Virus record (IMG/VR): IMGVR_UViG_3300045988_117647
Location: 1 to 21,959 of that record
Source of the DNA: a virus
Taxonomy: Duplodnaviria; Heunggongvirae; Uroviricota; Caudoviricetes
DNA length: 21,959 nt
Strand: one strand, 5' to 3'
In this document: in pieces, positions 227-21,959 of the stretch
Position numbering within the stretch: position 1 is the first letter of the stretch
Layout: each line of letters begins with the position of its first letter
The notes under the pieces: generated by a model
What the model saw: only the letters and a program-made list of their open reading frames with translations
What the model was told of the DNA's origin: nothing
Databases searched by the model: none
Position numbers and translations under genes: made by a program

Positions 227-242
227 GAAAAAGGTGAAAACG

Positions 243-2410: not shown

Positions 2411-2415
2411 GATGT

Positions 2416-5222: not shown

Positions 5223-5395
5223 GAATACCTCGCCGTGATGAATACACGGCAAGGCTACTGAGTCGCGCCCCGCGATTCGCTAAGGTGCTGTTGTGTCAGT
5301 GATAAGCCATCCGGGACTGATGGCGGAGGATGCGTATCGTCGGGAAACTGATGCCGACATGTGACTCCTCTAATCACTATTCAGGACTCCTGACA
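5223..5395. promoter_or_regulatory. Divergent intergenic region between P and O, expected site of the Ogr-dependent late promoters for both operons
   Basis: Position by synteny with P2. I could not find an exact TGT-N12-ACA element by eye, so only the region is called. Confidence 0.35.
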
Positions 5396-6250
5396 ATGGC
5401 AAAAAAAGTCTCAAAATTCTTTCGTATCGGCGTTGAGGGTGACACCTGTGACGGGCGTGTCATCAGTGCGCAGGATATTCAGGAAATGGCCGAAACCTTT
5501 GACCCGCGAGTCTATGGTTGCCGCATTAACCTGGAACATCTGCGCGGCATCCTGCCTGACGGTATTTTTAAGCGTTATGGCGATGTGGTCGAACTGAAGG
5601 CCGAAAAGATTGACGATGATTCGGCGCTGAAAGGCAAATGGGCGCTGTTTGCGAAAATCACCCCGACCGATGACCTTATCGCGATGAACAAGGCCGCGCA
5701 GAAGGTCTATACCTCAATGGAAATTCAGCCGAACTTTGCCAACACCGGCAAATGTTATCTGGTGGGGCTGGCCGTCACCGATGACCCGGCAAGCCTCGGC
5801 ACGGAATACCTGGAATTCTGCCGCACGGCAAAACACAACCCCCTGAACCGCTTCAAATTAAGCCCTGAAAACCTGATTTCAGTGGCAACGCCCGTTGAGC
5901 TGGAATTTGAAGACCTGCCTGAAACCGTGTTCACCGCCCTGACCGAAAAGGTGAAATCCATTTTTGGCCGCAAACAGGCCAGCGATGACGCCCGTCTGAA
6001 TGACGTGCATGAAGCGGTGACCGCTGTCGCTGAGCATGTGCAGGAAAAACTGAGCGCCACTGAGCAGCGCCTTGCTGAGATGGAAACCGCCTTTTCCGCA
6101 CTTAAGCAGGATGTGACTGACAGGGCGGATGAAACCAGTCAGGCATTCACCCGCCTGAAAAACAGTCTCGACCACACCGAAAGTCTGACCCAGCAGCGCC
6201 GCAGCAAAGCCACCGGCGGTGGCGGTGACGCCCTGATGACGAACTGCTGA
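5396..6250 (+). CDS. O: Capsid scaffolding protein (P2 gpO-like), 284 aa
   Basis: ORF track 5330-6250; start at ATG 5396 (MAKKVSKFF) with AGGA RBS; length and order match P2 O. Confidence 0.85.
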   Translation: MAKKVSKFFRIGVEGDTCDGRVISAQDIQEMAETFDPRVYGCRINLEHLRGILPDGIFKRYGDVVELKAEKIDDDSALKGKWALFAKITPTDDLIAMNKAAQKVYTSMEIQPNFANTGKCYLVGLAVTDDPASLGTEYLEFCRTAKHNPLNRFKLSPENLISVATPVELEFEDLPETVFTALTEKVKSIFGRKQASDDARLNDVHEAVTAVAEHVQEKLSATEQRLAEMETAFSALKQDVTDRADETSQAFTRLKNSLDHTESLTQQRRSKATGGGGDALMTNC

Positions 6251-6308
6251 CCGGCGTCAGTCAGTCCGGGAAAACCTTCACGATTAACCCTTAATTTCAG
6301 GAAAAACT

Positions 6309-7382
6309 ATGCGCCAGGAAACCCGCTTTAAATTTAATGCCTACCTGTCCCGTGTTGCCGAACTGAACGGCATCGACGCCGGTGATGTGTCGAAAAAATT
6401 CACCGTTGAACCGTCGGTCACCCAGACCCTGATGAACACCATGCAGGAGTCCTCTGACTTTCTGACCCGCATCAACATTGTGCCGGTCAGCGAAATGAAA
6501 GGGGAAAAAATTGGTATTGGTGTCACCGGCTCCATCGCCAGCACCACCGACACCGCCGGTGGCACCGAGCGTCAGCCGAAGGACTTCTCGAAGCTGGCGT
6601 CAAACAAGTACGAATGCGACCAGATTAACTTCGATTTTTATATCCGCTACAAAACGCTGGACCTGTGGGCGCGTTATCAGGATTTCCAGCTCCGTATCCG
6701 TAACGCCATTATCAAACGCCAGTCCCTTGATTTCATCATGGCCGGTTTTAACGGCGTGAAGCGTGCCGAAACCTCTGACCGCAGCAGCAATCCGATGCTG
6801 CAGGATGTGGCGGTCGGCTGGCTGCAGAAATACCGCAATGAAGCCCCGGCGCGCGTGATGAGCAAGGTCACTGACGAGGAAGGGCACACCACCTCTGAGG
6901 TCATCCGCGTGGGTAAGGGCGGTGATTATGCCAGCCTTGACGCACTGGTGATGGATGCGACCAACAACCTGATTGAGCCGTGGTATCAGGAAGACCCTGA
7001 CCTTGTGGTGATTGTGGGACGTCAGCTACTGGCGGACAAGTATTTTCCCATCGTCAACAAGGAGCAGGACAACAGCGAAATGCTGGCCGCTGACGTCATC
7101 ATCAGCCAGAAACGCATCGGCAACCTGCCAGCGGTACGCGTCCCGTACTTCCCGGCGGATGCGATGCTCATCACGAAGCTGGAAAACCTGTCCATCTACT
7201 ACATGGATGACAGCCATCGCCGCGTGATTGAGGAAAACCCGAAACTTGACCGCGTGGAGAACTACGAGTCAATGAACATTGATTACGTGGTGGAGGACTA
7301 CGCCGCCGGTTGTCTGGTGGAAAAAATTAAGGTCGGTGATTTCTCCACACCGGCTAAAGCGACCGCAGAGCCGGGAGCGTAA
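6309..7382 (+). CDS. N: Major capsid protein (P2 gpN-like), 357 aa
   Basis: ORF length and position match P2 N; N-terminus MRQETRFKFNAYL. Confidence 0.9.
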   Translation: MRQETRFKFNAYLSRVAELNGIDAGDVSKKFTVEPSVTQTLMNTMQESSDFLTRINIVPVSEMKGEKIGIGVTGSIASTTDTAGGTERQPKDFSKLASNKYECDQINFDFYIRYKTLDLWARYQDFQLRIRNAIIKRQSLDFIMAGFNGVKRAETSDRSSNPMLQDVAVGWLQKYRNEAPARVMSKVTDEEGHTTSEVIRVGKGGDYASLDALVMDATNNLIEPWYQEDPDLVVIVGRQLLADKYFPIVNKEQDNSEMLAADVIISQKRIGNLPAVRVPYFPADAMLITKLENLSIYYMDDSHRRVIEENPKLDRVENYESMNIDYVVEDYAAGCLVEKIKVGDFSTPAKATAEPGA

Positions 7383-7385
7383 CCG

Positions 7386-8129
7386 ATGACGAGTCCCGCA
7401 CAGCGCCACATGATGCGGGTCTCGGCAGCGATGACCGCGCAGCGGGAAGCCGCCCCGCTGCGACATGCAACTGTCTATGAGCAGATGCTGGTCAAGCTGG
7501 CCGCAGACCAGCGCACACTGAAAGCGATTTATTCAAAAGAGCTGAAGGCCGCGAAAAAACGCGAACTGCTGCCGTTCTGGTTGCCGTGGGTGAATGGCGT
7601 GCTGGAGCAGGGCAAAGGTGCACAGGATGACATTCTGATGACGGTCATGCTGTGGCGTCTGGATACCGGCGATATTGCCGGTGCGCTGGAGATTGCCCGT
7701 TATGCCCTGAAGTACGGTCTGACCATGCCGGGTAAACACCGCCGCCCCCCGCCGTACATGTTCACCGAGGAGGTGGCGCTCGCGGCCATGCGTGCTCACG
7801 CTGCCGGTGAGTCTGTGGATACCCGCCTGCTGACGGACACCCTTGAACTGACTGCCACGGCTGACATGCCTGATGAAGTGCGCGCAAAGCTGCACAAAAT
7901 CACCGGTCTGTTTCTGCGTGACGCTGGTGATGCCGCCGGTGCGCTGGCTCACCTGCAACGTGCGACACAGCTCGACTGTCAGGCAGGCGTCAAAAAAGAG
8001 ATTGAACGACTGGAGCGGGAGCTGAAACCGAAGCCGGAGCCGCAGCCAAAAGCGGCCACCCGTACCCCGCGTAAGACCCGGAGCGTGACACCGGCAAAAC
8101 GTGGACGCCCGAAAAAGAAAGCCAGTTAA
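7386..8129 (+). CDS. M: Terminase small subunit (P2 gpM-like), 247 aa
   Basis: Length and synteny; basic, Lys/Arg/Pro-rich C-terminus. Confidence 0.85.
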   Translation: MTSPAQRHMMRVSAAMTAQREAAPLRHATVYEQMLVKLAADQRTLKAIYSKELKAAKKRELLPFWLPWVNGVLEQGKGAQDDILMTVMLWRLDTGDIAGALEIARYALKYGLTMPGKHRRPPPYMFTEEVALAAMRAHAAGESVDTRLLTDTLELTATADMPDEVRAKLHKITGLFLRDAGDAAGALAHLQRATQLDCQAGVKKEIERLERELKPKPEPQPKAATRTPRKTRSVTPAKRGRPKKKAS

Positions 8130-8228
8130 CAACCGAATGCGCCCCGCGCCAGGGCGGCACGCCGGTCAGTGAGGGTGAATTACCTGACATTGCACCGGCG
8201 TCCACCGCCCGACTTTTCAGAGGTAGTC

Positions 8229-8738
8229 ATGATGACGCTGATTATTCCGCGAAAGGAGGCTCCCGTGTCCGGTGAGGGTACGGTGGTTATCCCGCAACCG
8301 GCAGGCGACGAGCCGGTGATTAAAAACACGTTCTTTTTTCCCGATATCGACCCGAAGCGCGTCCGGGAACGTATGCGCCTTGAGCAGACCGTCGCCCCCG
8401 CCCGTCTGCGTGAGGCCATCAAGTCAGGCATGGCGGAGACGAATGCGGAGCTGTACGAGTACCGCGAACAGAAAATTGCCGCCGGTTTTACGCGTCTGGC
8501 GGACGTCCCGGCGGACGACATCGACGGTGAAAGCATCAAAGTTTTTTACTACGAGCGCGCCGTGTGTGCGATGGCGACCGCGTCGCTTTATGAGCGTTAT
8601 CGCGGCGTGGATGCCAGTGCGAAAGGTGACAAGAAGGCTGACAGCATTGACAGCACCATTGATGAACTGTGGCGGGATATGCGCTGGGCGGTGGCGCGTA
8701 TCCAGGACAAGCCGCGCTGCATCGTGAGTCAAATCTGA
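8229..8738 (+). CDS. L: Head completion/stabilisation protein (P2 gpL-like), 169 aa
   Basis: ORF track 8169-8738; start at ATG 8229 (MMTLIIPRKE) with GAGGT RBS gives the P2 L length. Confidence 0.8.
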   Translation: MMTLIIPRKEAPVSGEGTVVIPQPAGDEPVIKNTFFFPDIDPKRVRERMRLEQTVAPARLREAIKSGMAETNAELYEYREQKIAAGFTRLADVPADDIDGESIKVFYYERAVCAMATASLYERYRGVDASAKGDKKADSIDSTIDELWRDMRWAVARIQDKPRCIVSQI

Positions 8739-8941
8739 TGAAGACCTTTGCGCTACAGGGCGACACGCTCGACGCCATTTGTGTCCGGTATTACGGGCGC
8801 ACTGAGGGCGTGGTTGAGACCGTGCTCGTCGCAAATCCGGGACTGGCTGAACTGGGTGCGGTGCTGCCACACGGCACCGCCGTCGAACTGCCCGACGTTC
8901 AGACCGCGCCCGTGGCTGAAACTGTCAATCTGTGGGAGTAA
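8738..8941 (+). CDS. X: Tail protein X (P2 gpX-like), 67 aa
   Basis: ATG at 8738 overlaps the L stop (TGATG); 67-aa product MKTFALQGDTLD... in the position of P2 X. Confidence 0.8.
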   Translation: MKTFALQGDTLDAICVRYYGRTEGVVETVLVANPGLAELGAVLPHGTAVELPDVQTAPVAETVNLWE

Positions 8942-8944
8942 CGC

Positions 8945-9226
8945 ATGACAGCAGAAGAAAAAAGCGTCCTGTCGCTTTTCATGATTGGGGTGCTGATTGT
9001 TGTCGGCAAGGTGCTTGCCGGTGGTGAACCCATCACCCCGCGTCTGTTTATCGGGCGCATGTTGCTCGGTGGTTTTGTCTCGATGGTTGCCGGTGTTGTT
9101 CTGGTGCAGTTTCCTGACCTGTCACTGCCTGCGGTGTGCGGCATCGGCTCCATGCTGGGTATCGCCGGTTATCAGGTGATTGAGATTGCCATTCAGCGCC
9201 GTTTTAAGGGCAGGGGGAAACCGTAA
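8945..9226 (+). CDS. Y: Holin (P2 gpY-like), 93 aa
   Basis: 93 aa with hydrophobic transmembrane segments and a basic C-terminus (RRFKGRGKP); first gene of the lysis cassette. Confidence 0.8.
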   Translation: MTAEEKSVLSLFMIGVLIVVGKVLAGGEPITPRLFIGRMLLGGFVSMVAGVVLVQFPDLSLPAVCGIGSMLGIAGYQVIEIAIQRRFKGRGKP

Positions 9227-9723
9227 TGCCGGTAATTAACACGCATCAGAATATCGCCGCCTTTCTCGACATGCTGGCCGTGTCCGAAGGGACGGCGAAT
9301 CATCCGCTGACGAAAAACTGTGGCTATGACGTGATAGTCACCGGACTGGACGGGAAGCCGGAAATCTTCACCGACTACAGTGACCACCCGTTCGCGCATG
9401 GCCGACCGGCGAAGGTGTTTAACCGTCGCGGTGAAAAATCCACGGCCTCCGGTCGCTATCAGCAGCTTTACCTGTTCTGGCCGCATTACCGCAAACAGCT
9501 TGCCCTGCCGGATTTCAGTCCGTTGTCACAGGACAGACTCGCCATTCAGTTGATCCGCGAACGCGGTGCGCTGGATGACATCCGGGCGGGACGCATTGAG
9601 CGCGCCATTTCACGCTGTCGCAATATCTGGGCGTCCCTGCCGGGTGCCGGTTACGGTCAGCGTGAGCATTCACTGGAAAAACTGGTCACCGTCTGGCGTA
9701 CCGCTGGCGGCGTACCGGCTTAA
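9226..9723 (+). CDS. K: Endolysin, lysozyme-like (P2 gpK-like), 165 aa
   Basis: Length and position match P2 K; start overlaps Y stop (TAATG). Confidence 0.85.
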   Translation: MPVINTHQNIAAFLDMLAVSEGTANHPLTKNCGYDVIVTGLDGKPEIFTDYSDHPFAHGRPAKVFNRRGEKSTASGRYQQLYLFWPHYRKQLALPDFSPLSQDRLAIQLIRERGALDDIRAGRIERAISRCRNIWASLPGAGYGQREHSLEKLVTVWRTAGGVPA

Positions 9724-9737
9724 ACGGAGTAAACACC

Positions 9738-10163
9738 ATGAAGAAATTATCCCTTTCACTGATGCTGAACGTGTCGCTGGCGCTGATGCTGGCACTGTCC
9801 CTGATTTACCCGCAGAGCGTGGCCGTCAGTTTTGTCGCCACCTGGGCGATTCTGGCGACGGTTATCTGTGTGGTTGCCGGTGGTGTCGGCGTGTATGCCA
9901 CTGAGTATGTGCTGGAACGCTACGGGCGGGAGCTGCCGCCGGAATCGCTGGCCGTGAAGATTGTCACGCCGCTGTTTTTGCAGCCGGTGCCGTGGCGCAG
10001 ACGGGCGGTGGCTCTGGTGGTGATGGTGGCGACGTTTATCTCGCTGGTTGCCGCCGGGTGGATTTTTACTGCACTGATTTATCTCGTGGCGTCGCTGTTT
10101 TTCCGGCTGATACGTAAAGCCTGTCGTCAGCGTCTTGAGGGGCGGGAACTATGTCAAAGCTGA
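9738..10163 (+). CDS. lysA: LysA-like membrane protein (lysis timing), 141 aa
   Basis: 141 aa, strongly hydrophobic with several predicted transmembrane segments; follows K as in P2. Confidence 0.75.
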   Translation: MKKLSLSLMLNVSLALMLALSLIYPQSVAVSFVATWAILATVICVVAGGVGVYATEYVLERYGRELPPESLAVKIVTPLFLQPVPWRRRAVALVVMVATFISLVAAGWIFTALIYLVASLFFRLIRKACRQRLEGRELCQS

Positions 10164-10576
10164 TGATTGTGATGGTTGTGCTGTTATCGCTGGCGGTAGC
10201 GGCGCTGTTTCTGGCGAAGCATGAAAACGCCAGCCTGCGCACCTCACTGGACAGGGCGAGCAACGTCGCCAACGGGCAGCAGACGACCATCACCATGCTG
10301 AAAAATCAGCTTCATGTTGCCCTCACCAGGGCAGACAAAAACGAGCTGGCGCAGGTGGCACTGCGTCAGGAACTGGAAAACGCCGCGAAGCGTGAAGCAC
10401 AGCGCGAGAAAGCCATCACGAGGTTACTGAATGAAAACGAAGATTTTCGCCGCTGGTATGGCGCTGACCTGCCTGATGCTGTGCGCCGGTTGCACCAGCG
10501 CCCCGCCTGCACCGACGCCAGTGATTGTCCACAACGCCTGCCCGAAAGTGAGCCTTTGCCCGATGCCGGGCAGTGA
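10151..10576 (+). CDS. lysB: LysB, Rz-like inner-membrane spanin, 141 aa
   Basis: N-terminal transmembrane segment (LMIVMVVLLSLAVAALFLA) followed by a charged helical region; overlaps lysA end; contains lysC in another frame. Confidence 0.75.
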   Translation: MSKLMIVMVVLLSLAVAALFLAKHENASLRTSLDRASNVANGQQTTITMLKNQLHVALTRADKNELAQVALRQELENAAKREAQREKAITRLLNENEDFRRWYGADLPDAVRRLHQRPACTDASDCPQRLPESEPLPDAGQ

Positions 10577-10721
10577 CCCGCAGACGAACGGCGATTTAAG
10601 TGCCGATATCCGGCAGCTTGAGAACGCGCTGGCACGCTGTGCCAGCCAGGTAAAAATGATTAAACACTGTCAGGACGAAAACGATGCTCAAACCCGACAG
10701 CCTGCGCAGGGCACTGACTGA
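10431..10721 (+). CDS. lysC: LysC, Rz1-like outer-membrane lipoprotein spanin, 96 aa
   Basis: Starts inside lysB in a different frame; signal peptide with lipobox LCAGC; Pro-rich mature part; GAGG RBS. Confidence 0.7.
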   Translation: MKTKIFAAGMALTCLMLCAGCTSAPPAPTPVIVHNACPKVSLCPMPGSDPQTNGDLSADIRQLENALARCASQVKMIKHCQDENDAQTRQPAQGTD

Positions 10722-11151
10722 TGCCGTCACGGTGCTGAAAACCAGCCCCGAGATGCTGCGGATATTCGTGGATAACGGGAGTATTGCCTCCACACTGGCG
10801 ACGTCGCTGTCATTCGAAAAGCGTTACACGCTCAATGTCATTGTGACCGATTTTACCGGTGATTTTGACCTGCTCATCGTGCCGGTGCTGGCGTGGCTGC
10901 GGGAAAATCAGCCCGACATCATGACCACCGACGAAGGCCAGAAAAAGGGCTTCACGTTTTATGCAGACATCAACAATGACAGCAGCTTTGATATCAGCAT
11001 CAGCCTGATGCTGACCGAGCGCACGCTGGTCAGTGAGGTTGACGGCGCACTGCATGTGAAGAATATCCCGGAACCTCCGCCGCCGGAGCCGGTCACCCGC
11101 CCGATGGAGCTTTATATCAATGGCGAACTGGTGAGCAAGTGGGATGAATGA
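10684..11151 (+). CDS. R: Tail completion protein (P2 gpR-like), 155 aa
   Basis: Length and synteny with P2 R. Confidence 0.8.
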   Translation: MLKPDSLRRALTDAVTVLKTSPEMLRIFVDNGSIASTLATSLSFEKRYTLNVIVTDFTGDFDLLIVPVLAWLRENQPDIMTTDEGQKKGFTFYADINNDSSFDISISLMLTERTLVSEVDGALHVKNIPEPPPPEPVTRPMELYINGELVSKWDE

Positions 11152-11596
11152 GTTTAAGCGTTTTGAAGACCGGCTGACCGGACTTATTGAGTCGCTGTCA
11201 CCGTCAGGGCGTCGGCGACTGAGTGCCGAACTGGCAAAACGTCTGCGACAGAGTCAGCAGCGTCGGGTGATGGCACAGAAAGCCCCGGACGGCACACCCT
11301 ACGCGCCACGCCAGCAGCAGAGCGCCAGAAAAAAGACTGGTCGTGTTAAGCGAAAAATGTTTGCGAAACTTATCACCAGTCGTTTTTTGCATATCCGCGC
11401 CAGCCCGGAACAGGCATCAATGGAATTTTACGGCGGGAAGTCACCGAAAATCGCCAGCGTGCATCAGTTCGGTCTGTCGGAAGAAAACCGGAAAGACGGT
11501 AAGAAAATTGATTATCCGGCGCGTCCTCTGCTCGGCTTTACCGGTGAGGATGTGCAGATGATTGAAGAGATTATTCTGGCTCACCTCGACCGTTAG
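11144..11596 (+). CDS. S: Tail completion protein (P2 gpS-like), 150 aa
   Basis: Length and synteny with P2 S; overlaps R end. Confidence 0.8.
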   Translation: MNEFKRFEDRLTGLIESLSPSGRRRLSAELAKRLRQSQQRRVMAQKAPDGTPYAPRQQQSARKKTGRVKRKMFAKLITSRFLHIRASPEQASMEFYGGKSPKIASVHQFGLSEENRKDGKKIDYPARPLLGFTGEDVQMIEEIILAHLDR

Positions 11597-11628
11597 TTGT
11601 GCCATTCCCGACACCTCATCGTCACATT

Positions 11629-11650
11629 GCCGCCGGTATGACCCGGCGGC
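11629..11650 (+). other. GC-rich hairpin (GCCGCCGG-n6-CCGGCGGC) in the S-V intergenic region, which by synteny also holds the late promoter for V
   Basis: 8-bp perfect stem read directly; followed by a partly T-rich stretch. Function as terminator or attenuator not established. Confidence 0.3.
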
Positions 11651-11662
11651 ATCCTTCCCGTT

Positions 11663-12298
11663 ATGAACACTCTCGCAAATATTCAGGAACTCGCGCGCGC
11701 ACTGCGCAACATGATCCGCACCGGCATTATCGTTGAAACCGACCTTAACGCCGGTCGCTGCCGTGTGCAGACTGGTGGCATGTGCACTGACTGGCTTAAG
11801 TGGCTGACCCATCGCGCCGGGCGTTCGCGCACATGGTGGGCACCTTCCGTGGGGGAACAGGTGCTGATTCTGGCCGTGGGCGGTGAACTCGACACGGCGT
11901 TCGTTCTGCCGGGGATTTATTCCGGCGATAACCCCGCGCCGTCTGCGTCGGCGGATGCCCTGCATATCCGTTTCCCTGACGGGGCGGTGATTGAATATGA
12001 ACCTGAAACCAGTGCACTCACGGTAAGCGGAATTAAAACGGCCAGCGTGATGGCTTCTGATTCTGTTACTGCCACGGTGCCGGTGGTCACGGTGAAAGCA
12101 TCAACCTGCGTCACCCTGGACACACCGGAAGTGGTCTGCACCAACAAACTGACTACCGGCACGCTGGAAGTGCAGAAGGGCGGGACGATGCGCGGCAACA
12201 TCGCGCATACCGGCGGTGAACTCTCATCAAACGGTAAGGTACTGCATACCCATAAACACCCCGGCGACAGCGGCGGCACAACAGGGGGACCTCTATGA
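11663..12298 (+). CDS. V: Baseplate spike/hub protein (P2 gpV-like), 211 aa
   Basis: Length and synteny with P2 V. Confidence 0.85.
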   Translation: MNTLANIQELARALRNMIRTGIIVETDLNAGRCRVQTGGMCTDWLKWLTHRAGRSRTWWAPSVGEQVLILAVGGELDTAFVLPGIYSGDNPAPSASADALHIRFPDGAVIEYEPETSALTVSGIKTASVMASDSVTATVPVVTVKASTCVTLDTPEVVCTNKLTTGTLEVQKGGTMRGNIAHTGGELSSNGKVLHTHKHPGDSGGTTGGPL

Positions 12299-12642
12299 CT
12301 GCGCGTTATCTCGGAATGAATCGCAGTGATGGCCTGACTGTCACTGACCTTGAGCATATCAGCCAGAGTATCGGCGATATCCTGCGCACGCCGGTCGGCT
12401 CACGGGTGATGCGTCGTGATTACGGCTCGTTGCTGGCGTCAATGATTGACCAGCCGCAGACCCCGGCGCTTGAGTTGCAGATTAAGGTCGCCTGTTACAT
12501 GGCTGTGCTGAAATGGGAACCCCGCGTCACCCTGTCATCCGTCACCACTGAGCGCAGTTTTGACGGGCGAATGACTGTCACTTTGACCGGCCAGCACAAC
12601 GACACCGGCCAGCCACTTTCGTTAACCATCCCTGTGAGTTGA
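12295..12642 (+). CDS. W: Baseplate wedge protein (P2 gpW-like), 115 aa
   Basis: Length and synteny; start overlaps V stop (ATGA). Confidence 0.85.
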   Translation: MTARYLGMNRSDGLTVTDLEHISQSIGDILRTPVGSRVMRRDYGSLLASMIDQPQTPALELQIKVACYMAVLKWEPRVTLSSVTTERSFDGRMTVTLTGQHNDTGQPLSLTIPVS

Positions 12643-12646
12643 AACC

Positions 12647-13555
12647 ATGCCGATTATCGACCTGAACCAGCTACCCGCACCGGATGTGGTCGAGGAGCTG
12701 GACTTTGAAACCATTCTTGCCGAACGCAAGGCGACACTGATTTCCCTTTACCCGGAAGACCAGCAGGAGGCGGTCGCCCGTACCCTGACGCTGGAATCTG
12801 AGCCTCTCGTCAAACTGCTGGAGGAAAATGCTTATCGTGAGCTTATCTGGCGTCAGCGTGTGAATGAGGCCGCACGGGCGGTAATGCTGGCCTGTGCCGC
12901 CGGTAATGACCTTGATGTGATTGGTGCCAATTACAACACCACGCGCCTGACTATCACTCCGGCAGATGATTCGACCCTCCCGCCGACACCGGCAGTGATG
13001 GAGTCTGACACCGATTATCGTCTGCGTATTCAGCAGGCTTTTGAGGGCTTAAGCGTCGCCGGGTCAGTGGGAGCTTATCAGTATCATGGTCGCAGTGCCG
13101 ACGGGCGTGTCGCCGATATTTCTGTCACCAGTCCGTCTCCTGCCTGCGTCACCATCTCTGTGCTGTCACGTGAAAATAACGGTGTTGCATCCGAAGACCT
13201 GCTGGCCGTGGTGCGTAACGCCCTTAATGGCGAGGACGTCAGGCCGGTGGCCGACCGCGTGACCGTGCAGTCTGCCGCCATCGTTGAATACCAGATAAAC
13301 GCCACGCTTTACCTTTACCCTGGCCCCGAAAGCGAACCCATCCGCGCTGCCGCCGTGAAAAAACTGGAAGCATACATCACGGCACAGCACCGGCTGGGGC
13401 GCGACATCCGTCTGTCTGCCATTTATGCCGCTTTGCATGTTGAAGGCGTGCAGCGTGTCGAACTGGCTGCACCACTGGCCGACATCGTGCTCAACAATAC
13501 GCAGGCGTCTTTCTGTACCGAATACAGCGTCGTGACCGGAGGCTCGGATGAGTGA
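12647..13555 (+). CDS. J: Baseplate protein (P2 gpJ-like), 302 aa
   Basis: Length and synteny with P2 J. Confidence 0.85.
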   Translation: MPIIDLNQLPAPDVVEELDFETILAERKATLISLYPEDQQEAVARTLTLESEPLVKLLEENAYRELIWRQRVNEAARAVMLACAAGNDLDVIGANYNTTRLTITPADDSTLPPTPAVMESDTDYRLRIQQAFEGLSVAGSVGAYQYHGRSADGRVADISVTSPSPACVTISVLSRENNGVASEDLLAVVRNALNGEDVRPVADRVTVQSAAIVEYQINATLYLYPGPESEPIRAAAVKKLEAYITAQHRLGRDIRLSAIYAALHVEGVQRVELAAPLADIVLNNTQASFCTEYSVVTGGSDE

Positions 13556-14078
13556 TTCGCGACTGCTGCCGACCGGCTCATCACCGCTTGAAGTTGCCGC
13601 CGCAAAAGCCTGTGCGGAAATTGAAAAAACGCCGGTCAGTATTCGTGAGCTGTGGAACCAGGATACCTGTCCGGCAAATCTGCTGCCGTGGCTGGCGTGG
13701 GCGTTTTCGGTCGACAGGTGGGATGAGAAGTGGCCGGAAGCGACAAAACGCGCCGTTATCCGCGATGCGTATTTCATCCACTGTCATAAAGGCACTATAG
13801 GTGCAATCCGGCGTGTGGTGGAGCCGCTCGGCTATCTCATCAACGTGACGGAGTGGTGGGAAAATAGTGACCCGCCCGGCACCTTCCGGCTTGATATTGG
13901 TGTACTGGAAAGTGGCATCACAGAGGCAATGTATCAGGAAATGGAACGGCTGATTGCTGATGCCAAACCTGCAAGCCGTCACCTTATTGGCCTGAACATT
14001 ACCCAGGACATTCCCGGCTACCTGTTCGCCGGTGGTGTGGCTTACGACGGCGATGTAATTACGGTTTACCCCGGATAA
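13548..14078 (+). CDS. I: Baseplate protein (P2 gpI-like), 176 aa
   Basis: Length and synteny with P2 I; overlaps J end. Confidence 0.85.
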   Translation: MSDSRLLPTGSSPLEVAAAKACAEIEKTPVSIRELWNQDTCPANLLPWLAWAFSVDRWDEKWPEATKRAVIRDAYFIHCHKGTIGAIRRVVEPLGYLINVTEWWENSDPPGTFRLDIGVLESGITEAMYQEMERLIADAKPASRHLIGLNITQDIPGYLFAGGVAYDGDVITVYPG

Positions 14079-14088
14079 GTGAGGAATA

Positions 14089-15954
14089 ATGAGCACAAAA
14101 TTCAGAACCGTTATCACCACTGCCGGTGCAGCAAAGCTGGCAGCGGCAACCGCACCGGGAGGGCGGAAGGTCAACATTACCACGATGGCCGTCGGGGATG
14201 GCGGTGGTAAATTGCCTGTCCCGGATGCCGGACAGACCGGACTTATCCATGAAGTCTGGCGACATGCGCTGAACAAAATCAGCCAGGACAAACGAAACAG
14301 TAATTATATTATCGCAGAGCTGGTTATTCCGCCGGAGGTGGGCGGTTTCTGGATGCGAGAGCTTGGCCTGTACGATGATGCGGGAACGTTAATTGCCGTG
14401 GCGAACATGGCCGAAAGTTATAAACCTGCCCTTGCCGAAGGCTCAGGGCGTTCGCAGACCTGCCGCATGGTCATCATCGTCAGCAGTGTGGCCTCAGTGG
14501 AGCTGACTATTGACACCACAACGGTGATGGCAACGCAGGATTACGTTGATGACAAAATTGCAGAACATGAACAGTCACGACGTCACCCTGACGCCTCGCT
14601 GACCGCAAAAGGTTTTACTCAGTTAAGCAGTGCGACCAACAGCACTTCTGAAACACTGGCTGCAACGCCGAAAGCGGTAAAGGCCGCCTATGACCTTGCT
14701 AACGGGAAATACACTGCACAGGACGCCACCACAGCGCGAAAAGGTCTTGTCCAGCTCAGTAGTGCCACCAACAGCACGTCTGAAACGCTCGCCGCAACAC
14801 CAAAAGCGGTAAAAGCAGCATATGACCTTGCTAACGGGAAATATACCGCACAGGACGCCACCACAGCGCGAAAAGGCCTTGTTCAGCTCAGTAGCGCCAC
14901 CAACAGTGATTCGGAAACGCTGGCAGCAACACCAAAAGCGGTGAAGTCTGCCTATGACAATGCTGAAAAACGTCTTCAGAAAGATCAGAACGGTGCGGAT
15001 ATTCCTGATAAAAGATTATTCCTGCGCAATATTGGTGCAACAAATTCAACAACCATGTCTTTTAGTGGTGGTACAGGATGGTTCAGGCTGGCAACTGTAA
15101 CCATGCCACAGGCCAGTTCCGTGGTTTACATAAGTCTGATTGGTGGTGCTGGATATAATGTTAACTCCCCTATGCAGGCTGGTATATCTGAACTTGTTCT
15201 TCGTGCGGGAAATGGAAATCCAAAAGGTCTTACTGGTGCGTTATGGCGACGGACATCGGTTGGATTTACTAATTTTGCATGGGTGAATACATCCGGTGAT
15301 ACCTATGATGTTTATGTTGAAATAGGTAATTACGCCACAGGTGTTAATATTCAGTGGGATTATACCAGTAACGCCAGCGTAACGATTCATACATCGCCAT
15401 CTTATACAGCGAATAAACCAACAGGTCTTACAGATGGAACTGTATATGTAATTTACAGTTCGCACATTAAACCGACTGCTGCTGATGTTGGGGCGTTGTC
15501 ATTATCTGGAGGTCAATTGAATGGTGCACTGGGCATCGGAACATCCAGTGTTCTTGGCGGTAACTCAATTGTTTTGGGTGATAATGACACGGGCTTTAAA
15601 CAAAATGGTGACGGTAATCTGGATGTTTATGCTAATAACGTTCATGTTATGCGCTTTGTCTCCGGTAGCATTCAAAGTAATAAAACCATAAATATTACGG
15701 GTCGTGTTAATCCCACAGATTACGGTAACTTTGATTCCCGCTATGTCCGGGATATCCGGCTTGGTGGTGCTGCCACATACAAACCTGCGAACAATGGCAT
15801 GACATGGACACATCAGGCACCGTCCGGGTGTGTATATTCCGGCATTATTATTCAGGATACCGGCTCAAACTCTGCCGATAACATTGGTGGCGTATATTAC
15901 AGACCGGTGCAGAAATACATTAACGGGACATGGTATAACGTGGCGCAGGTATAA
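14089..15954 (+). CDS. H: Tail fibre protein (P2 gpH-like but shorter, 621 aa), with internal tandem repeats and an AT-richer C-terminal part
   Basis: Position after I; GAGG RBS; 44-aa repeats containing SATNS..ETLAATPKAVK, which resemble the phage tail-fibre repeat motif; composition changes after about 15000. Confidence 0.85.
   Translation: MSTKFRTVITTAGAAKLAAATAPGGRKVNITTMAVGDGGGKLPVPDAGQTGLIHEVWRHALNKISQDKRNSNYIIAELVIPPEVGGFWMRELGLYDDAGTLIAVANMAESYKPALAEGSGRSQTCRMVIIVSSVASVELTIDTTTVMATQDYVDDKIAEHEQSRRHPDASLTAKGFTQLSSATNSTSETLAATPKAVKAAYDLANGKYTAQDATTARKGLVQLSSATNSTSETLAATPKAVKAAYDLANGKYTAQDATTARKGLVQLSSATNSDSETLAATPKAVKSAYDNAEKRLQKDQNGADIPDKRLFLRNIGATNSTTMSFSGGTGWFRLATVTMPQASSVVYISLIGGAGYNVNSPMQAGISELVLRAGNGNPKGLTGALWRRTSVGFTNFAWVNTSGDTYDVYVEIGNYATGVNIQWDYTSNASVTIHTSPSYTANKPTGLTDGTVYVIYSSHIKPTAADVGALSLSGGQLNGALGIGTSSVLGGNSIVLGDNDTGFKQNGDGNLDVYANNVHVMRFVSGSIQSNKTINITGRVNPTDYGNFDSRYVRDIRLGGAATYKPANNGMTWTHQAPSGCVYSGIIIQDTGSNSADNIGGVYYRPVQKYINGTWYNVAQV
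14611..14964 (+). repeat. Three tandem copies (two complete, third partial) of a 132-bp coding repeat inside H
   Basis: Copies start at 14611 and 14743 and are near-identical at DNA level; the third (from 14875) diverges after about 90 bp. Confidence 0.85.
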
Positions 15955-15957
15955 TTT

Positions 15958-16485
15958 ATGCAGCATTTAAAAAATATTACGGCGGGTAATCCAAAAACGG
16001 TTGAACAATATCAATTGACAAAGGGCTTTGATGTTGTCTGGTTTTTTACAGAAGATGGTAAGAACTGGTACGAAGAACAAAAGTATTTTGCTGATGACAC
16101 GATAAAAATAGCGTACGACAAAGATAATATCATCCGCTATGTGGAAAAGGATGTGACAGCTATCAGACCGGATGGATTAAGTGTGGTTGAAGTGGCGGAT
16201 ATTACTGCTAACCGACGTGCGGATATTTCAGGGGGCTGGATGTTTAAGGACGGCAAAGTGATTAAACGCATTTATACGGCAGAGGAATTACAGCAGCAGG
16301 CAGAAATTCGGAAAGCCAGACTTCTTGCAGATGCTGAATCCGTGATTTTGCCGCTGGAGCGCGCGGTCAGACTGAACATGGCAACAGAGGAGGAGCGCAC
16401 ACGGCTGGAGGCTTGGGAACGCTACAGCGTTCTGGTCAGTCGTGTGGATCCTGCAAATCCTGAATGGCCGGAAATGCCGCAATAA
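15958..16485 (+). CDS. G: Tail fibre assembly protein (P2 gpG-like), 175 aa
   Basis: Length and position immediately after H. Confidence 0.8.
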
Positions 16486-16520
16486 GTTGTATGAACTCTG
16501 GTGTGAGCTTACATATCTAT

Positions 16521-16560
16521 GGCACAGAGTAAAGCCTAATCTGACAGTCCGCTCTGTGCC
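16521..16560. repeat. Inverted repeat GGCACAGAG-n22-CTCTGTGCC at the boundary between G and AT-rich island 2
   Basis: Perfect 9-bp arms read directly; no T-run follows on either strand, so it is not called a terminator. Confidence 0.4.
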
Positions 16561-16738
16561 AAAAGCGGGCGTTGATCACATGGGCTATGCTAACCCATTA
16601 TAACAGTGTAACAGAGCTACCCACGATTACTCCCGGCCTCTAAAGTTTGCTACATAATAAAGAATCATTCCCTTTAATCTGATCTTAGCGGTATAGTATC
16701 TGGTGACCAGTAAGATAATCACCGACACTACAATCATG

Positions 16739-16766
16739 TTGATTTGCATTGTGTTTAGTCTAAAAT
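16739..16766 (+). promoter_or_regulatory. Candidate sigma70 promoter for the island-2 genes (-35 TTGATT 16739-16744, 16-nt spacer, -10 TAAAAT 16761-16766)
   Basis: Hexamers read directly, about 50 nt upstream of a strong RBS (AAGGAGG 16803-16809) and the ATG at 16816. Confidence 0.35.
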
Positions 16767-16815
16767 TGTGGTGCGAAAAGACCAATGAAAGTTATTGATA
16801 ATAAGGAGGAATCAA

Positions 16816-17598
16816 ATGTCAGGAATAAGATGGTTGGATAAAAAAGATTTAATTCTTAAAGGAATAAATGAAGGCACCTACCCAGAATCAGTTTACAAGT
16901 TCAGAACTATAGATAAAGCCAGTGATATTCTTCAAAAAAAGAATTTTACTTTTCATCAGCGGAAAATTTTAATGATCCATTTGATTGTATGCTGGATGAG
17001 GAAAAAGAATACTCTTTATCAGACTTTAATTGTTGGTTATATTTATATCAGAATGGATTAACCAAGAAGGCAAAGCAGAACTTAATAGATGTGTATAAAG
17101 AAAACAGCCAAGCATTTAATGATCTAGTTAAAAATATAAAAACAAAAGCCGTCAATGCCCATGGCATTTTATCGCTATCTAAAACTAATGAAAATATTCT
17201 TTTATGGTCTCATTATGCGGAGAACCATACCGGAGTTGCTATAAAACTCAATATTGCTAAGGATCCAGAGTTCTTTATAACCCCCCAAAACATAGTATAT
17301 GAAGCAATATATTCCATTAAATTATCTTAGAGACTCTAAAAAATCAATACTCGACACACTCTCTACGAAATCAATGGATTGGAATTATGAAGAGGAGATT
17401 AGAGTTTATAAAAGTAATATTGGAGCCTATAAGATTAAGCCAGAGGCAATAACTGATGTTTTTTTTGGTTTGAAAACGCTGGAACAGGATATTGCAAAAA
17501 TCAAAAATATATGTAGTGAAAATGGTCTAAGCCATGTGAAGTTTCATCGGGCTGAAAAAAAATATGGAGAATTTGCGCTACGTTTTAATCCTATTTGA
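16816..17598 (+). pseudogene. DUF2971-like gene interrupted by two compensating frameshifts (frame change within the A7 run at 16934-16940, then back between 17296 and 17330)
   Basis: Three ORF pieces (16795-17061, 16989-17330, 17299-17598) join into one DUF2971-like product: ...YKFRTIDKASDILQKK / EFYFSSAENFNDPFDC...LLWSHYAENHTGVAIK... / ...SMDWNYEEEIRVYKS. The first and third pieces share a frame. Family assignment is from recalled motifs. Confidence 0.6.
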
Positions 17599-17684
17599 CT
17601 TTTCTATTTAGTAGTTAAATGATAGTGCATTACGAGCCAATTAAATTTAATTCTATGGTTGTGTAGACAATAAAAGGTAACTAG

Positions 17685-18170
17685 ATGAATCAAGATGAGT
17701 TAAAAAATTTTTGTGTTGATGTGCGCGAAGCACTTGAGAAGATGACCAAAAAAGATCATTCACGGCTGTCATCTTTTGGAAATTCGAACTTTCCAGTGGG
17801 ATGCTGCGGAGATACATCGAAACTGCTTGCTTATTTACTTTATCAGCAATTCGGGATAGTCTCTGAAGTACTCGCAGGATGTTACTATGAATCTGATCAT
17901 AAGTCCCCCGCCAGCGGTCTTTCAAACGGTAATTCACATGCTTGGCTTGTCGTGGATGGAATGATTGTTGATTTGACTGCAGATCAGTTCAACGACCGGG
18001 GATATAACAATCTTCCCGTCATGATTACATCAGACACTAGGTTTCATGACCTCTTTGCCAATCGTAATGCCTTGTTTCAACCTTCTCAAGGTAATGAAAT
18101 TATTCTACCTGATATTCTAAAAATGACAGCATCACATGTGCAGCAAAGGCTTAAAGAGCGAGGTTGGTAA
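17685..18170 (+). CDS. Hypothetical 161-aa protein with Cys-His-Asp arrangement (C40/C41 in GCCGD, H85 in SHAWLVVDG, D96/D100 in IVDLTAD) suggestive of a transglutaminase-like or papain-like cysteine peptidase fold
   Basis: Clean ORF in AT-rich DNA with AAAGG RBS; the motif HAWLVVDG-IVDLTAD resembles the His-Asp segment of transglutaminase-like domains. Inference only. Confidence 0.65.
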   Translation: MNQDELKNFCVDVREALEKMTKKDHSRLSSFGNSNFPVGCCGDTSKLLAYLLYQQFGIVSEVLAGCYYESDHKSPASGLSNGNSHAWLVVDGMIVDLTADQFNDRGYNNLPVMITSDTRFHDLFANRNALFQPSQGNEIILPDILKMTASHVQQRLKERGW

Positions 18171-18487
18171 TACGGGTGCAGCAGAATCTAAAGCTGATAC
18201 TTAAAATTATATAGGAAGAGCATAAACTTATCCTAAATCTGGCTGTAATAGATCCTTTCATATATCGGCCAGATTAATATGAAGTAATCCAAATTAGTGT
18301 CTGAAAATATAATCAGCTCCATAACAATAGATTTATCGCTTAAAAATAACGTCAACATGAGGGTAGAAAACATCCCTAAAGATAAGTCTGGTCTAACCTT
18401 TGCTCCTCGCTCAAAGCAGACTGTCAGAATTGATAGCGTTTGGGCTATGTAAATTGTCAGTCGGAAAATGAGTGAGTACAAATCAGG

Positions 18488-18515
18488 ACAGGCGGGCGAA
18501 TTGCCCGCCTTTTCT
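18488..18515 (+). terminator. Rho-independent terminator (GGCGGGC-GAAT-TGCCCGCC followed by TTTTCTTTATC), plus-strand orientation
   Basis: Hairpin and T-run read directly; lies about 320 nt after the 161-aa gene and about 100 nt before FI. Confidence 0.6.
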
Positions 18516-18613
18516 TTATCTGTTGTTTCATCCACTGACCAGTCAGGTCAAATAGCGTCTCATGCTCTGCACAACAGAAAATAGCTGCACCCATTAACCA
18601 CGGAGTTAAACGG

Positions 18614-19804
18614 ATGAGTGACTATCATCACGGCGTGCAGGTGCTGGAAATTAACGACGGCACCCGTGTCATTTCCACCGTATCCACTGCCATTGTCGGC
18701 ATGGTCTGCACGGCCAGCGATGCGGATGCGGAAACCTTCCCCCTCAATAAACCTGTGCTGATTACCAATGTGCAGAGCGCAATTGCAAAGGCCGGTAAAA
18801 AAGGCTCGCTGGCGGCATCGTTGCAGGCCATCGCCGACCAGTCAAAACCGGTCACCGTTGTCGTGCGTGTGGAAGACGGCACCGGCGACGACGAAGAAAC
18901 GAAACTTGCGCAGACCGTTTCCAATATTATCGGCACCACCGACGAAAACGGTCAGTACACCGGACTGAAAGCCCTGCTGGCGGCGGAATCGGTAACCGGT
19001 GTTAAACCGCGTATTCTCGGTGTGCCGGGGCTGGATACCAAAGAGGTGGCTGTTGCACTGGCATCAGTCTGTCAGAAGCTGCGCGCTTTCGGGTATATCA
19101 GCGCATGGGGCTGTAAGACCATTTCCGAGGTGAAAGCTTACCGCCAGAATTTCAGCCAGCGTGAGCTGATGGTCATCTGGCCGGATTTCCTCGCATGGGA
19201 TACGGTCACCAGTACCACCGCCACCGCGTATGCCACTGCCCGTGCACTGGGCCTGCGCGCTAAAATCGACCAGGAGCAGGGCTGGCATAAAACGCTGTCC
19301 AATGTCGGGGTGAACGGTGTTACCGGCATCAGCGCATCTGTATTCTGGGATTTGCAGGAGTCCGGCACCGATGCTGACCTGCTGAACGAGTCAGGTGTCA
19401 CAACGCTGATTCGCCGTGACGGTTTCCGCTTCTGGGGTAACCGTACCTGCTCTGATGACCCGCTGTTCCTCTTTGAAAACTACACCCGCACCGCGCAGGT
19501 GCTGGCCGACACGATGGCTGAGGCGCACATGTGGGCGGTGGACAAGCCCATCACCGCAACGCTGATTCGCGACATCGTTGACGGCATCAATGCCAAATTC
19601 CGTGAGCTGAAAACAAACGGCTATATCGTGGATGCGACCTGCTGGTTCAGCGAAGAATCCAACGATGCGGAAACCCTCAAGGCCGGAAAATTGTATATCG
19701 ACTACGACTATACACCGGTGCCTCCTCTCGAAAACCTGACCCTGCGCCAGCGTATTACCGATAAATACCTGGCAAATCTGGTCACCTCGGTTAACAGCAA
19801 TTAA
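18614..19804 (+). CDS. FI: Contractile tail sheath protein (P2 FI-like), 396 aa
   Basis: Length and synteny with P2 FI; GGAG RBS. Confidence 0.9.
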   Translation: MSDYHHGVQVLEINDGTRVISTVSTAIVGMVCTASDADAETFPLNKPVLITNVQSAIAKAGKKGSLAASLQAIADQSKPVTVVVRVEDGTGDDEETKLAQTVSNIIGTTDENGQYTGLKALLAAESVTGVKPRILGVPGLDTKEVAVALASVCQKLRAFGYISAWGCKTISEVKAYRQNFSQRELMVIWPDFLAWDTVTSTTATAYATARALGLRAKIDQEQGWHKTLSNVGVNGVTGISASVFWDLQESGTDADLLNESGVTTLIRRDGFRFWGNRTCSDDPLFLFENYTRTAQVLADTMAEAHMWAVDKPITATLIRDIVDGINAKFRELKTNGYIVDATCWFSEESNDAETLKAGKLYIDYDYTPVPPLENLTLRQRITDKYLANLVTSVNSN

Positions 19805-19816
19805 GGAGCCTGACCG

Positions 19817-20335
19817 ATGGCAATGCCGCGCAAACTCAAGTTAATGAACGTCTTTCTGAACGGCTACAGCTATCAGGGCGTTGCAAAGTCCGTCACGCTG
19901 CCAAAACTGACCCGTAAGCTCGAAAACTATCGCGGTGCGGGGATGAACGGCAGCGCACCGGTAGACCTCGGCCTTGATGACGATGCGCTGTCAATGGAGT
20001 GGTCGCTCGGGGGCTTCCCGGATTCGGTTATCTGGGAACTTTACGCCGCAACCGGTGTGGATGCCGTACCGATTCGTTTTGCAGGCTCTTACCAGCGCGA
20101 CGATACCGGCGAAACGGTGGCCGTCGAGGTGGTCATGCGTGGACGTCAGAAAGAAATCGACACCGGCGAGGGCAAACAGGGAGAAGACACCGAGTCGAAA
20201 ATCTCCGTGGTCTGCACCTATTTCCGGCTGACGATGGACGGTAAGGAGCTGGTCGAAATCGACACCATCAACATGATTGAGAAGGTGAACGGCGTCGACC
20301 GGCTGGAGCAACACCGCCGCAATATCGGCCTGTGA
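19817..20335 (+). CDS. FII: Tail tube protein (P2 FII-like), 172 aa
   Basis: Length and synteny with P2 FII; AGGAG RBS. Confidence 0.9.
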   Translation: MAMPRKLKLMNVFLNGYSYQGVAKSVTLPKLTRKLENYRGAGMNGSAPVDLGLDDDALSMEWSLGGFPDSVIWELYAATGVDAVPIRFAGSYQRDDTGETVAVEVVMRGRQKEIDTGEGKQGEDTESKISVVCTYFRLTMDGKELVEIDTINMIEKVNGVDRLEQHRRNIGL

Positions 20336-20342
20336 TTTTCAT

Positions 20343-20363
20343 CCGGTCAGCCTGGCTGACCGG
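20343..20363 (+). other. Palindromic hairpin CCGGTCAGCC-T-GGCTGACCGG between FII and E
   Basis: Perfect palindrome read directly; no clear T-run, so possibly an RNA processing or attenuation structure rather than a full terminator. Confidence 0.3.
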
Positions 20364-20391
20364 TTAACCCCGATTCAGAAGTGAGAAAACC

Positions 20392-20667
20392 ATGAACAAA
20401 GAAAATGTCATTACCCTGGACAATCCGGTCAAACGTGGTGAGCAGGTTATCGAACAGGTCACGCTGATGAAACCCAATGCCGGGACGCTGCGCGGTGTCA
20501 GTCTGGCAGCGGTCGCGAACTCCGAAGTCGATGCACTGATTAAGGTGCTGCCGCGCATGACGGCACCGATGCTGACCGAGCAGGAAGTCGCCGCGCTGGA
20601 ACTGCCTGACCTTGTGGCGCTGGCCGGTAAGGTGGTCGGTTTTTTGTCGCCGAACTCGGTGCAGTGA
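20392..20667 (+). CDS. E: Tail assembly chaperone E (P2 gpE-like), 91 aa
   Basis: Length and synteny with P2 E; ends just after a T6G slippery run. Confidence 0.8.
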   Translation: MNKENVITLDNPVKRGEQVIEQVTLMKPNAGTLRGVSLAAVANSEVDALIKVLPRMTAPMLTEQEVAALELPDLVALAGKVVGFLSPNSVQ

Positions 20668-20819
20668 CGTTTCCGAAAAATCTCTCGGTCGATGACCTGA
20701 TGGCGGATGTGGCAGTGATATTTCACTGGCCGCCATCAGAACTGTATCCCATGAGCCTGACCGAACTCATCACATGGCGCGAAAAGGCGCTCCGGCGAAG
20801 CGGAAACACGAATGAGTAA
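20392..20819 (+). CDS. E+E': E+E' frameshift-extended tail chaperone, made by a -1 shift at 20640-20646 and ending at TAA 20817-20819
   Basis: The -1 frame is open from the slippery site to 20819, where it overlaps the T start. The P2 E/E' frameshift is established; its presence here is inferred from the sequence. Confidence 0.65.
20640..20646 (+). promoter_or_regulatory. Slippery heptamer T-TTT-TTG for programmed -1 translational frameshifting (E to E+E')
   Basis: Heptamer in the correct phase relative to the E frame (codons GGT TTT TTG), 20 nt before the E stop. Confidence 0.65.
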
Positions 20820-21959
20820 CAATGTAAAATTACAGGTATTGCTCAGGGCTGTTGACCAGGCATCCCGCCCGTTTAAATCCATCCGCACAGCGAGTAAGTC
20901 GCTGTCGGGGGATATCCGGGAAACACAAAAATCACTGCGCGAGCTGAACGGTCACGCATCCCGTATTGAGGGATTCCGCAAGACCAGTGCACAGCTCGCC
21001 GTGACTGGTCATGCACTTGAAAAGGCTCGGCAGGAGGCCGAAGCCCTTGCCACACAGTTTAAAAATACCGAACGTCCGACACGTGCTCAGGCGAAAGTGC
21101 TGGAATCCGCAAAGCGTGCGGCGGAGGACTTACAGGCGAAATATAACCGCCTGACGGATTCCGTTAAACGCCAGCAGCGGGAACTGGCCGCTGTGGGAAT
21201 TAATACCCGCAATCTTGCACATGATGAGCAGGGACTGAAAAACCGTATCAGTGAAACCACCGCACAGCTTAACCGTCAGCGTGACGCACTGGCGCGTGTC
21301 AGTGCACAACAGGCAAAACTTAACGCAGTAAAACAGCGTTATCAGGCCGGAAAGGAACTGGCCGGAAATATGGCCTCAGTGGGCGCTGCCGGTGTGGGGA
21401 TTGCGGCGGCGGGAACGATGGCCGGAGTTAAGTTGCTGATGCCCGGTTATGAGTTTGCGCAGAAAAACTCAGAATTGCAGGCCGTGCTCGGAGTGGCAAA
21501 AGACTCCGCCGAAATGACCGCACTACGCAAACAGGCGCGCCAGCTCGGCGACAATACCGCCGCCTCGGCGGATGATGCGGCCGGTGCACAGATAATCATC
21601 GCGAAAGCGGGTGGGGATGTTGATGCCATTCAGGCGGCAACGCCGGTCACGCTGAATATGGCGCTGGCGAACCGTCGCACGATGGAAGAAAACGCCGCCC
21701 TGTTGATGGGGATGAAATCCGCCTTTCAGCTTTCAAACGATAAGGTCGCTCATATCGGGGATGTTCTCTCCATGACGATGAACAAAACCGCCGCCGATTT
21801 TGACGGCATGAGCGATGCGCTGACCTATGCCGCACCTGTGGCAAAAAATGCCGGTGTCAGCATTGAAGAAACCGCCGCAATGGTCGGGGCGCTGCATGAT
21901 GCAAAAATCACAGGCTGGACAATGGTTGGCTATCCAGATTCAGATACTATAGTTAGTAA
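20812..21959 (+). CDS. T: Tail tape measure protein (P2 gpT-like), 5' partial; the frame is still open at the window end
   Basis: ATG at 20812 (MSNNVKLQVLLRAVDQ...) overlapping the E' stop; Ala/Gln-rich coiled-coil-like sequence typical of tape measure proteins; no stop in frame through 21959. Confidence 0.85.
   Translation, partial: MSNNVKLQVLLRAVDQASRPFKSIRTASKSLSGDIRETQKSLRELNGHASRIEGFRKTSAQLAVTGHALEKARQEAEALATQFKNTERPTRAQAKVLESAKRAAEDLQAKYNRLTDSVKRQQRELAAVGINTRNLAHDEQGLKNRISETTAQLNRQRDALARVSAQQAKLNAVKQRYQAGKELAGNMASVGAAGVGIAAAGTMAGVKLLMPGYEFAQKNSELQAVLGVAKDSAEMTALRKQARQLGDNTAASADDAAGAQIIIAKAGGDVDAIQAATPVTLNMALANRRTMEENAALLMGMKSAFQLSNDKVAHIGDVLSMTMNKTAADFDGMSDALTYAAPVAKNAGVSIEETAAMVGALHDAKITGWTMVGYPDSDTIVS

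Follow-up and report, generated by a model that had tools for sequence, protein, structure and literature searches.

Between the tail genes G and FI of a P2-like (Peduovirus) prophage, a strong GC-rich hairpin with a T-run stands about 320 nt behind the last plus-strand gene, and the question raised by this locus is what such a hairpin terminates. The window analysed here, a stretch of 21,959 nt, covers the late region of the prophage and shares 95-97% identity with several P2-like phages of E. coli across 78-87% of its length. A preliminary description regarded the terminator as an orphan and proposed that it ends either a long 3′ untranslated region (UTR) or a discrete small RNA, while an antisense reading frame across it might encode a small membrane protein of the type I toxin kind. 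The homology and boundaries of the segments, the energetics and positional conservation of the hairpin, and the absence of a coding signal in the antisense frame point to one answer. The hairpin very probably closes the tail-fibre operon together with the cargo inserted behind it, before the late promoter P_F; the gap would be the 3′ UTR, and the antisense frame an accident.

The feature lies in the variable Z/fun (TO) site between G and FI. G (15958-16485, plus strand) is the final gene of the late operon V-W-J-I-H-G and encodes the tail-fibre assembly protein (Pfam Caudo_TAP, 1.5e-33), as annotated in Wphi, P2 and E. coli RefSeq records. FI (18614-19804, plus strand) encodes the tail sheath, according to Pfam (Phage_sheath_1, 9.4e-34) and to the annotation in relatives; it is preceded by the Shine-Dalgarno sequence GGAG (18602-18605) and followed by the tube gene FII (19817-20335). 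Across 16550-18400 the GC content falls from ~55% to 29-43%, and it comes back up at FI, as is expected for foreign cargo. This cargo consists of two plus-strand genes, both preceded by a promoter-like site at 16739-16766. The first (16816-17598) encodes a DUF2971 protein of the PADLOC candidate defence family PDC-S31. An intact 261-aa coding sequence is found in E. coli NCTC9008 and GPEC1042 (PDC-S31, 6.7e-47 for the intact copy); in the window, the gene is out of frame for ~360 nt, from about 16933 to 17295, by a loss of one nucleotide in an A8 run (16933) and of two in a TA repeat (~17295) relative to NCTC9008. This frame change could be a sequencing error, slipped-strand switching or decay. 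The second gene (17685-18170; phrog_26734), the last on the plus strand before the hairpin, encodes a 161-aa protein that is weakly YunG/transglutaminase-like (YunG 1.3e-4, below the Pfam cut-off). Its relatives come from two Firmicutes MAGs at 40-46% identity, with none in IMG/VR.

The hairpin has all the parts of an intrinsic terminator on the plus strand (18490-18519). The stem-loop at 18490-18510 is formed by AGGCGGGC and GCCCGCCT, with 8-9 bp of which seven are G-C pairs, and the tail TTTTCTTTA follows at 18511-18519. Folded as RNA, this segment reaches -19.1 kcal/mol against -7.7 +/- 2.4 in shuffles (z -4.66); 0 of 200 shuffles were as stable, and it ranks first among the terminator-like sites of the window in a scan of 2000-21959, so that the strong plus-strand terminator of the preliminary description is real by these measures. 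On the plus strand, UUUUCUUUA gives the U-run immediately behind the stem; read from the minus strand, the stem also folds, but it is then followed by UGUCCUGAUU, with no U-run. Since the U-run is present on the plus strand only, the terminator is expected to work in one direction. No other terminator-like site was found between 18170 and 18490.

The gap of ~320 nt upstream (18171-18490) is made of two parts, a cargo-specific stretch (18171-18394) and a conserved right inverted repeat (18395-18488). The Z/fun (TO) variable region of P2-like coliphages is reportedly flanked by left and right inverted repeats, a description said to go back to work by Nilsson, Karlsson and Haggard-Ljungquist in 2004 (Mol Biol Evol 21:1). 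The right repeat of the window belongs to the conserved backbone and aligns to the 'right inverted repeat' annotated in the GenBank records AJ512685 and AJ512677, which are the Z regions of P2-EC67 and P2-EC31, respectively; the annotated feature maps to ~18398-18488 here. The left repeat (16486-16600) begins right after the G stop codon, is homologous to the annotated repeat of the same two records, and aligns as an inverted copy of 18385-18500 with the well-matched core ATCTGACAGTC. Phage BLAST matches are found only from ~18393 on, at 92-97% identity, and in alignments to Wphi, P2-EC67, P2-EC31 and P2 the homology starts at ~18395 and continues unbroken into FI, with a sharp common edge at ~18396-18400. 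Copies of the right repeat more distant than these were sought, and all that were found are 85-97% identical and confined to Peduovirus. The backbone ends of the site are present in about 1,623 of 5,426 complete E. coli genomes.

The relation among repeats, cargo and hairpin can be seen in relatives. From IMG/VR, 120 loci anchored on the FI start were fetched, and the 81 holding both G and FI were classified. Seventeen are empty sites, with 74-171 nt from the G stop to the FI ATG; none of them has the repeats, and 14 have the hairpin with its T-run. Another 57 bear cargo and the left repeat (both repeats in 56, the left one only in 1), and the hairpin passes a strict pattern in 42 of these. 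The last seven bear cargo without repeats, and the strict pattern is passed by none. Thus 57 of the 64 cargo-bearing loci have the left repeat beside G, and none of the 17 empty sites does. The absence of the repeats from empty sites, like the common homology edge, is consistent with the repeats being recombination sites, and unrelated cargoes would be swapped between them as conserved borders. A review, where it summarises Nilsson et al. (2004), states that the inverted repeats flank fun and enable its exchange. About 20 other IMG/VR loci hold a gene with a DNA-invertase-like C-terminus (...IFDIGLSTLYKKFP) that reaches P_F, with no hairpin.

In empty-site relatives, the hairpin starts 4-5 nt after the G stop codon. 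Its position is kept across the family and its stem differs, with GGCGGGC/GCCCGCC, AACGGGC/GCCCGTT, GACGGGC/GCCCGTT and AGCCCTCC/GGAGGGCT as examples, and such a fixed position with a changing stem sequence marks a terminator under selection. The hairpin is no orphan by this comparison; it appears to be the ordinary, conserved backbone terminator common to P2-like phages, placed directly before P_F. The ancestral order would be G, terminator, P_F and FI, with repeat-flanked cassettes sitting between the G stop and the terminator. Like the late-operon terminators of the V operon in P2 (NC_001895) and of Q in the window, it consists of a GC-rich stem with a short loop and, behind it, a U-run, and it stands where an operon ends. 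In P2 itself, however, the backbone hairpin is degraded (AGGTGAGC/GCCCGCCT, about -9 to -10 kcal/mol), and the V-operon terminator annotated in the record is another, cargo-borne hairpin at 15639-15666, by the 3′ end of the minus-strand gene fun(Z). This degraded copy, together with the different annotated terminator, indicates that the hairpin is not indispensable in every relative. The idea that the hairpin is weaker beside a minus-strand cargo gene, as it is in P2, was rejected, for the median is -15.1 kcal/mol in both orientations among 56 loci. Because the strength of the hairpin is independent of the orientation of the cargo gene, a simple model in which it is needed only for plus-strand cargo fails.

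Downstream of the hairpin lies P_F. In P2, this late promoter is reportedly activated by Ogr/delta, a finding attributed to Christie and Calendar in 1985. The promoter of the window is predicted from its sequence, which aligns base for base with the annotated features of P2. The putative activator (Ogr-type) dyad at 18524-18541 on the plus strand reads TGT (18524-18526)-N12-CCA (18539-18541), and the P2 feature 'activator binding site; activation of pF promoter' (NC_001895, 17555-17583) aligns to 18519-18547. The alignment also gives a -10-like GAAAAT at 18577-18582 and, from the F-operon start site of P2 (17626-17628), a predicted transcription start at 18588-18590. The dyad is centred ~56 nt upstream of this start, which itself is ~25 nt before the FI ATG, as in P2. 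The spacer sequence within the dyad is of the Wphi type, unlike that of P2. The dyad consensus is TGT-N12-ACA, as quoted in PMC3931495, and CCA is the same departure from it as in P2's own P_F site. The terminator is packed closely against this promoter: its stem ends 13 nt before the first TGT of the dyad, and its T-run 4 nt before the flank of the dyad.

The other part of the gap, the cargo-specific stretch of 224 nt (18171-18394, plus strand, 34-37% GC), may be regarded as the first part of the 3′ UTR of the cargo mRNA. Among the 5,426 complete E. coli genomes, only the 12 with the same cargo have it, as unannotated DNA of 99.6-100% identity. Searches of the phage and plasmid collections did not find the stretch, and no record of the phage collection has this cargo. 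An inverted repeat (I18), at a distance of 66 nt behind the stop codon of the second cargo gene, forms a cargo-specific hairpin with a 10-bp stem (18236-18275, -16.2 kcal/mol, z -4.8), which is followed by a U-run on neither strand; comparison of the 12 near-identical E. coli copies tells nothing about it. In 36 relatives whose final cargo gene is on the plus strand, 36 to 568 nt separate this gene from the right repeat, and the 225 nt of the window lie within this range, so that the gap before the right repeat is unremarkable. It had been noted earlier that no plus-strand ORF intervenes after 18170, and this holds for any credible one: the only candidates are a mechanical 51-aa GTG ORF (18297-18452) and shorter frames, and RefSeq annotates nothing in the gap among genomes with the same DNA. 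The plus-strand cargo, the distances in relatives and the lack of an intervening terminator all fit the suggestion of a long 3′ UTR that would end at the hairpin.

Two other readings of the gap have to be weighed. The stretch 18171-18394 may be a decayed third cargo gene or intergenic DNA of the donor instead of a functional UTR. Its AT-rich composition resembles that of the cargo, stops are abundant in all its frames, and it travels only with this cargo. However, no similarity was found outside the 12 identical copies, and the relatives of the 161-aa gene, being too few and too distant, show no ancestral downstream neighbour. We hold such an origin to be highly improbable; it would in any case be compatible with the main explanation, since the stretch would still be transcribed as a 3′ UTR. 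The second reading concerns the right repeat and the terminator (~18395-18519, ~115-125 nt), which together may form a stable structured RNA, either a small RNA derived from the 3′ UTR or a stabilising 3′ module. The whole of 18171-18520 folds well (z -4.9), and this comes from the hairpin at 18236-18275, the palindrome of the right repeat and the terminator. The right repeat is an imperfect palindrome (18406-18413/18469-18476, 18419-18427/18454-18462 and 18433-18437/18444-18448), which places a long hairpin right before the terminator; the plus strand folds better (-27.2 kcal/mol, z -4.2) than the minus strand (-21.1). The segment is also conserved at 91-97% identity in 57 phage records, among phages with unrelated cargo. 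The conservation alone says little, because the neighbouring P_F/FI DNA is equally conserved, and a role at the DNA level as a cassette border accounts for the palindrome equally well. Fifty distinct sequences of the right repeat were compared; the RNAalifold consensus was poor and mis-registered, and an explicit structure was used in its place. In the palindrome, 92.7% of cells are paired, and among the non-Watson-Crick cells on the plus strand 150 are G.U-compatible versus 27 A.C, a point in favour of this reading. Yet 85 of these 150 descend from two ancestral G.U pairs, most of the others descend from a few inherited polymorphisms, and pairs with double changes number 2 against 2.7 expected from column shuffles, a comparison of little power among copies 85-97% identical. 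A discrete small RNA ending at the hairpin, as first suggested, also finds no promoter-like site on the plus strand within 18171-18490 and no Rfam match at E<=1 in a scan of 16000-19000. Two candidate promoters, picked out by eye inside the repeat, were rejected: TTGATA-N14-TAAATT, for its short spacer, and TTGTCA-N17-TACAAA, which is without the final T and would start transcription at the foot of the terminator. Small RNAs derived from 3′ UTRs, such as CpxQ and SroC, share the terminator of the mRNA. The likeness to them is a structured segment placed right in front of the intrinsic terminator that ends an mRNA; the difference is that neither covariation nor a family match was found for the right repeat, nor any sign of processing or of a seed region. 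A structured RNA is very unlikely here, and it is likewise very unlikely that the right repeat and terminator serve as a portable RNA 3′ end of ~120 nt for any Z/fun cargo. If they did, P2-like prophages, found in ~30% of complete E. coli genomes, would carry a stable structured RNA, either released or retained, with the role of a small RNA or of an element for mRNA stability and insulation, besides or instead of a DNA recombination border.

The antisense frame raises the remaining alternative, namely a small membrane protein read from the minus strand, perhaps a type I toxin. The frame of 100 codons with a GTG start (18233-18535, minus strand) is indeed in the ORF list, but its GTG (18535-18533) is not inside the hairpin, where it had been placed; this codon is found 23 nt rightward of the stem, in the middle of the activator dyad of P_F, and from there the frame reads through the hairpin. 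Codons 1-47 are made of backbone (P_F activator site, terminator and right repeat) and codons 48-100 of cargo-specific DNA. No Shine-Dalgarno sequence is found before the GTG, as had been remarked earlier; the upstream sequence is AGACGCTATTTGACCTGACTGGTCA. No promoter-like site was found upstream of it on the minus strand within the intergenic region. The hydrophobic character claimed for the product stands only in part. The GRAVY value is a moderate 0.38, and the two best 19-aa windows reach ~1.7, which would favour a membrane protein; each of them contains D, K, E or R, and since accidental frames in the same AT-rich cargo score 0.4-1.24, this hydrophobicity is ordinary. Comparison among 55 distinct relatives also speaks against a gene. 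The homologous frame varies from 6 to 100 aa with unrelated C-termini, because it ends at whatever stop is supplied by the local cargo; the start GTG is changed to GGG in seven of the relatives, and a 1-nt insertion leaves a 6-aa frame in four. Variation falls on the three codon positions as 159/181/122, so that the third position varies least. In a search of 5.8 billion proteins, 18 clusters were matched, and the only full-length match is a copy from this very contig; the remaining clusters cover 36-61% of the query, each at its N-terminal end, and a few database proteins are calls on this same DNA. The match of residues 2-48 to phrog_11095 is the same phenomenon. Neither PGAP nor the curated P2 and Wphi records call this frame. 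Type I toxin loci (hok/sok, ldr/rdl, ibs/sib and tisB/istR) resemble it only in having a frame with a hydrophobic stretch antisense to a transcribed region. The toxins are 20-60 aa long, whereas this frame has 100 codons, no clean transmembrane helix and no Shine-Dalgarno sequence, and it is unconserved and comes with no promoter for an antisense RNA. A toxin or other membrane protein is scarcely credible on this evidence: the open frame is a chimera of backbone and cargo, lost in relatives, with no excess of third-position changes and no homologue of its C-terminal half among the proteins searched. It is spurious, no more than chance gives, and not a gene.

Other accidental frames occur in the same place. 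The 51-codon GTG frame on the plus strand (18297-18452) is judged not to be a gene either; it straddles the junction of cargo and backbone without a Shine-Dalgarno sequence or third-position excess, and its sole family match is phrog_23566, a profile of 51 positions, over residues 2-51. In the automated annotations of LR595870 and MZ420230, a 'hypothetical protein' of 38-45 aa is called on the minus strand at the equivalent of 18457-18594, over P_F and the terminator, and this is probably a recurrent artefact of gene callers. Gene callers sometimes put such false 'hypothetical proteins' into this stretch, and the present analysis settles how it should be annotated.

The preferred reading, a backbone terminator closing the upstream operon and its cargo before P_F, can be put as a course of transcription. 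Transcripts would come from two sources: in lytic growth from the late operon V-W-J-I-H-G, and in the lysogen from a promoter belonging to the cargo. They would run through the two cargo genes, the 224-nt stretch and the ~94-nt right repeat, and would stop at the terminator. P_F, starting at ~18589, would then drive the tail operon, FI and FII included. With a terminator upstream of P_F, cargo or read-through transcription would be kept out of the tail operon; the terminator would in this way shield P_F and leave FI under the control of the activator. Termination itself, the ends of the transcripts and the insulating role are read from the arrangement of the DNA.

The locus agrees closely with the Z/fun regions of AJ512677 and AJ512685. 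These occupy the same place between G and FI, both repeats align at 92-97%, the cargo is likewise AT-rich and foreign with a predicted promoter of its own, and the backbone is the same up to FI. The difference is in the cargo of the window, the DUF2971/PDC-S31 gene with the 161-aa gene, which is rare (12 of 5,426 complete E. coli genomes). With this pair the cargo is new but the site, and the kind of site, is known, and all the elements discussed here are parts of a locus already described in a well-studied phage family. What is gained is the exact set of borders, that is, the G stop, the left repeat (16486-16600), the right repeat (18395-18488), the terminator (18490-18519) and P_F. These borders are useful for mining the cargo of the site, such as the candidate defence gene DUF2971/PDC-S31 found here, and they help in engineering P2-like phages while the control of the tail genes stays undisturbed.

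Elsewhere in the window, another clean terminator, GCCGCCTGCGGGCGGC followed by TTTTTT, is located on the minus strand at 2395-2410, just downstream of the minus-strand gene Q (2416-3450), and is probably the end of the P-Q operon. Beside Q and cos lies a second variable locus of P2-like phages, occupied here by an ORF of 644 aa (141-2075, plus strand) with matches to two families, DUF7380 of Pfam (2.7e-39) and the candidate defence family PDC-S39 of PADLOC (5.7e-85). With PDC-S39 at this locus and PDC-S31 in Z/fun, the prophage has candidate defence cargo at both hotspots.
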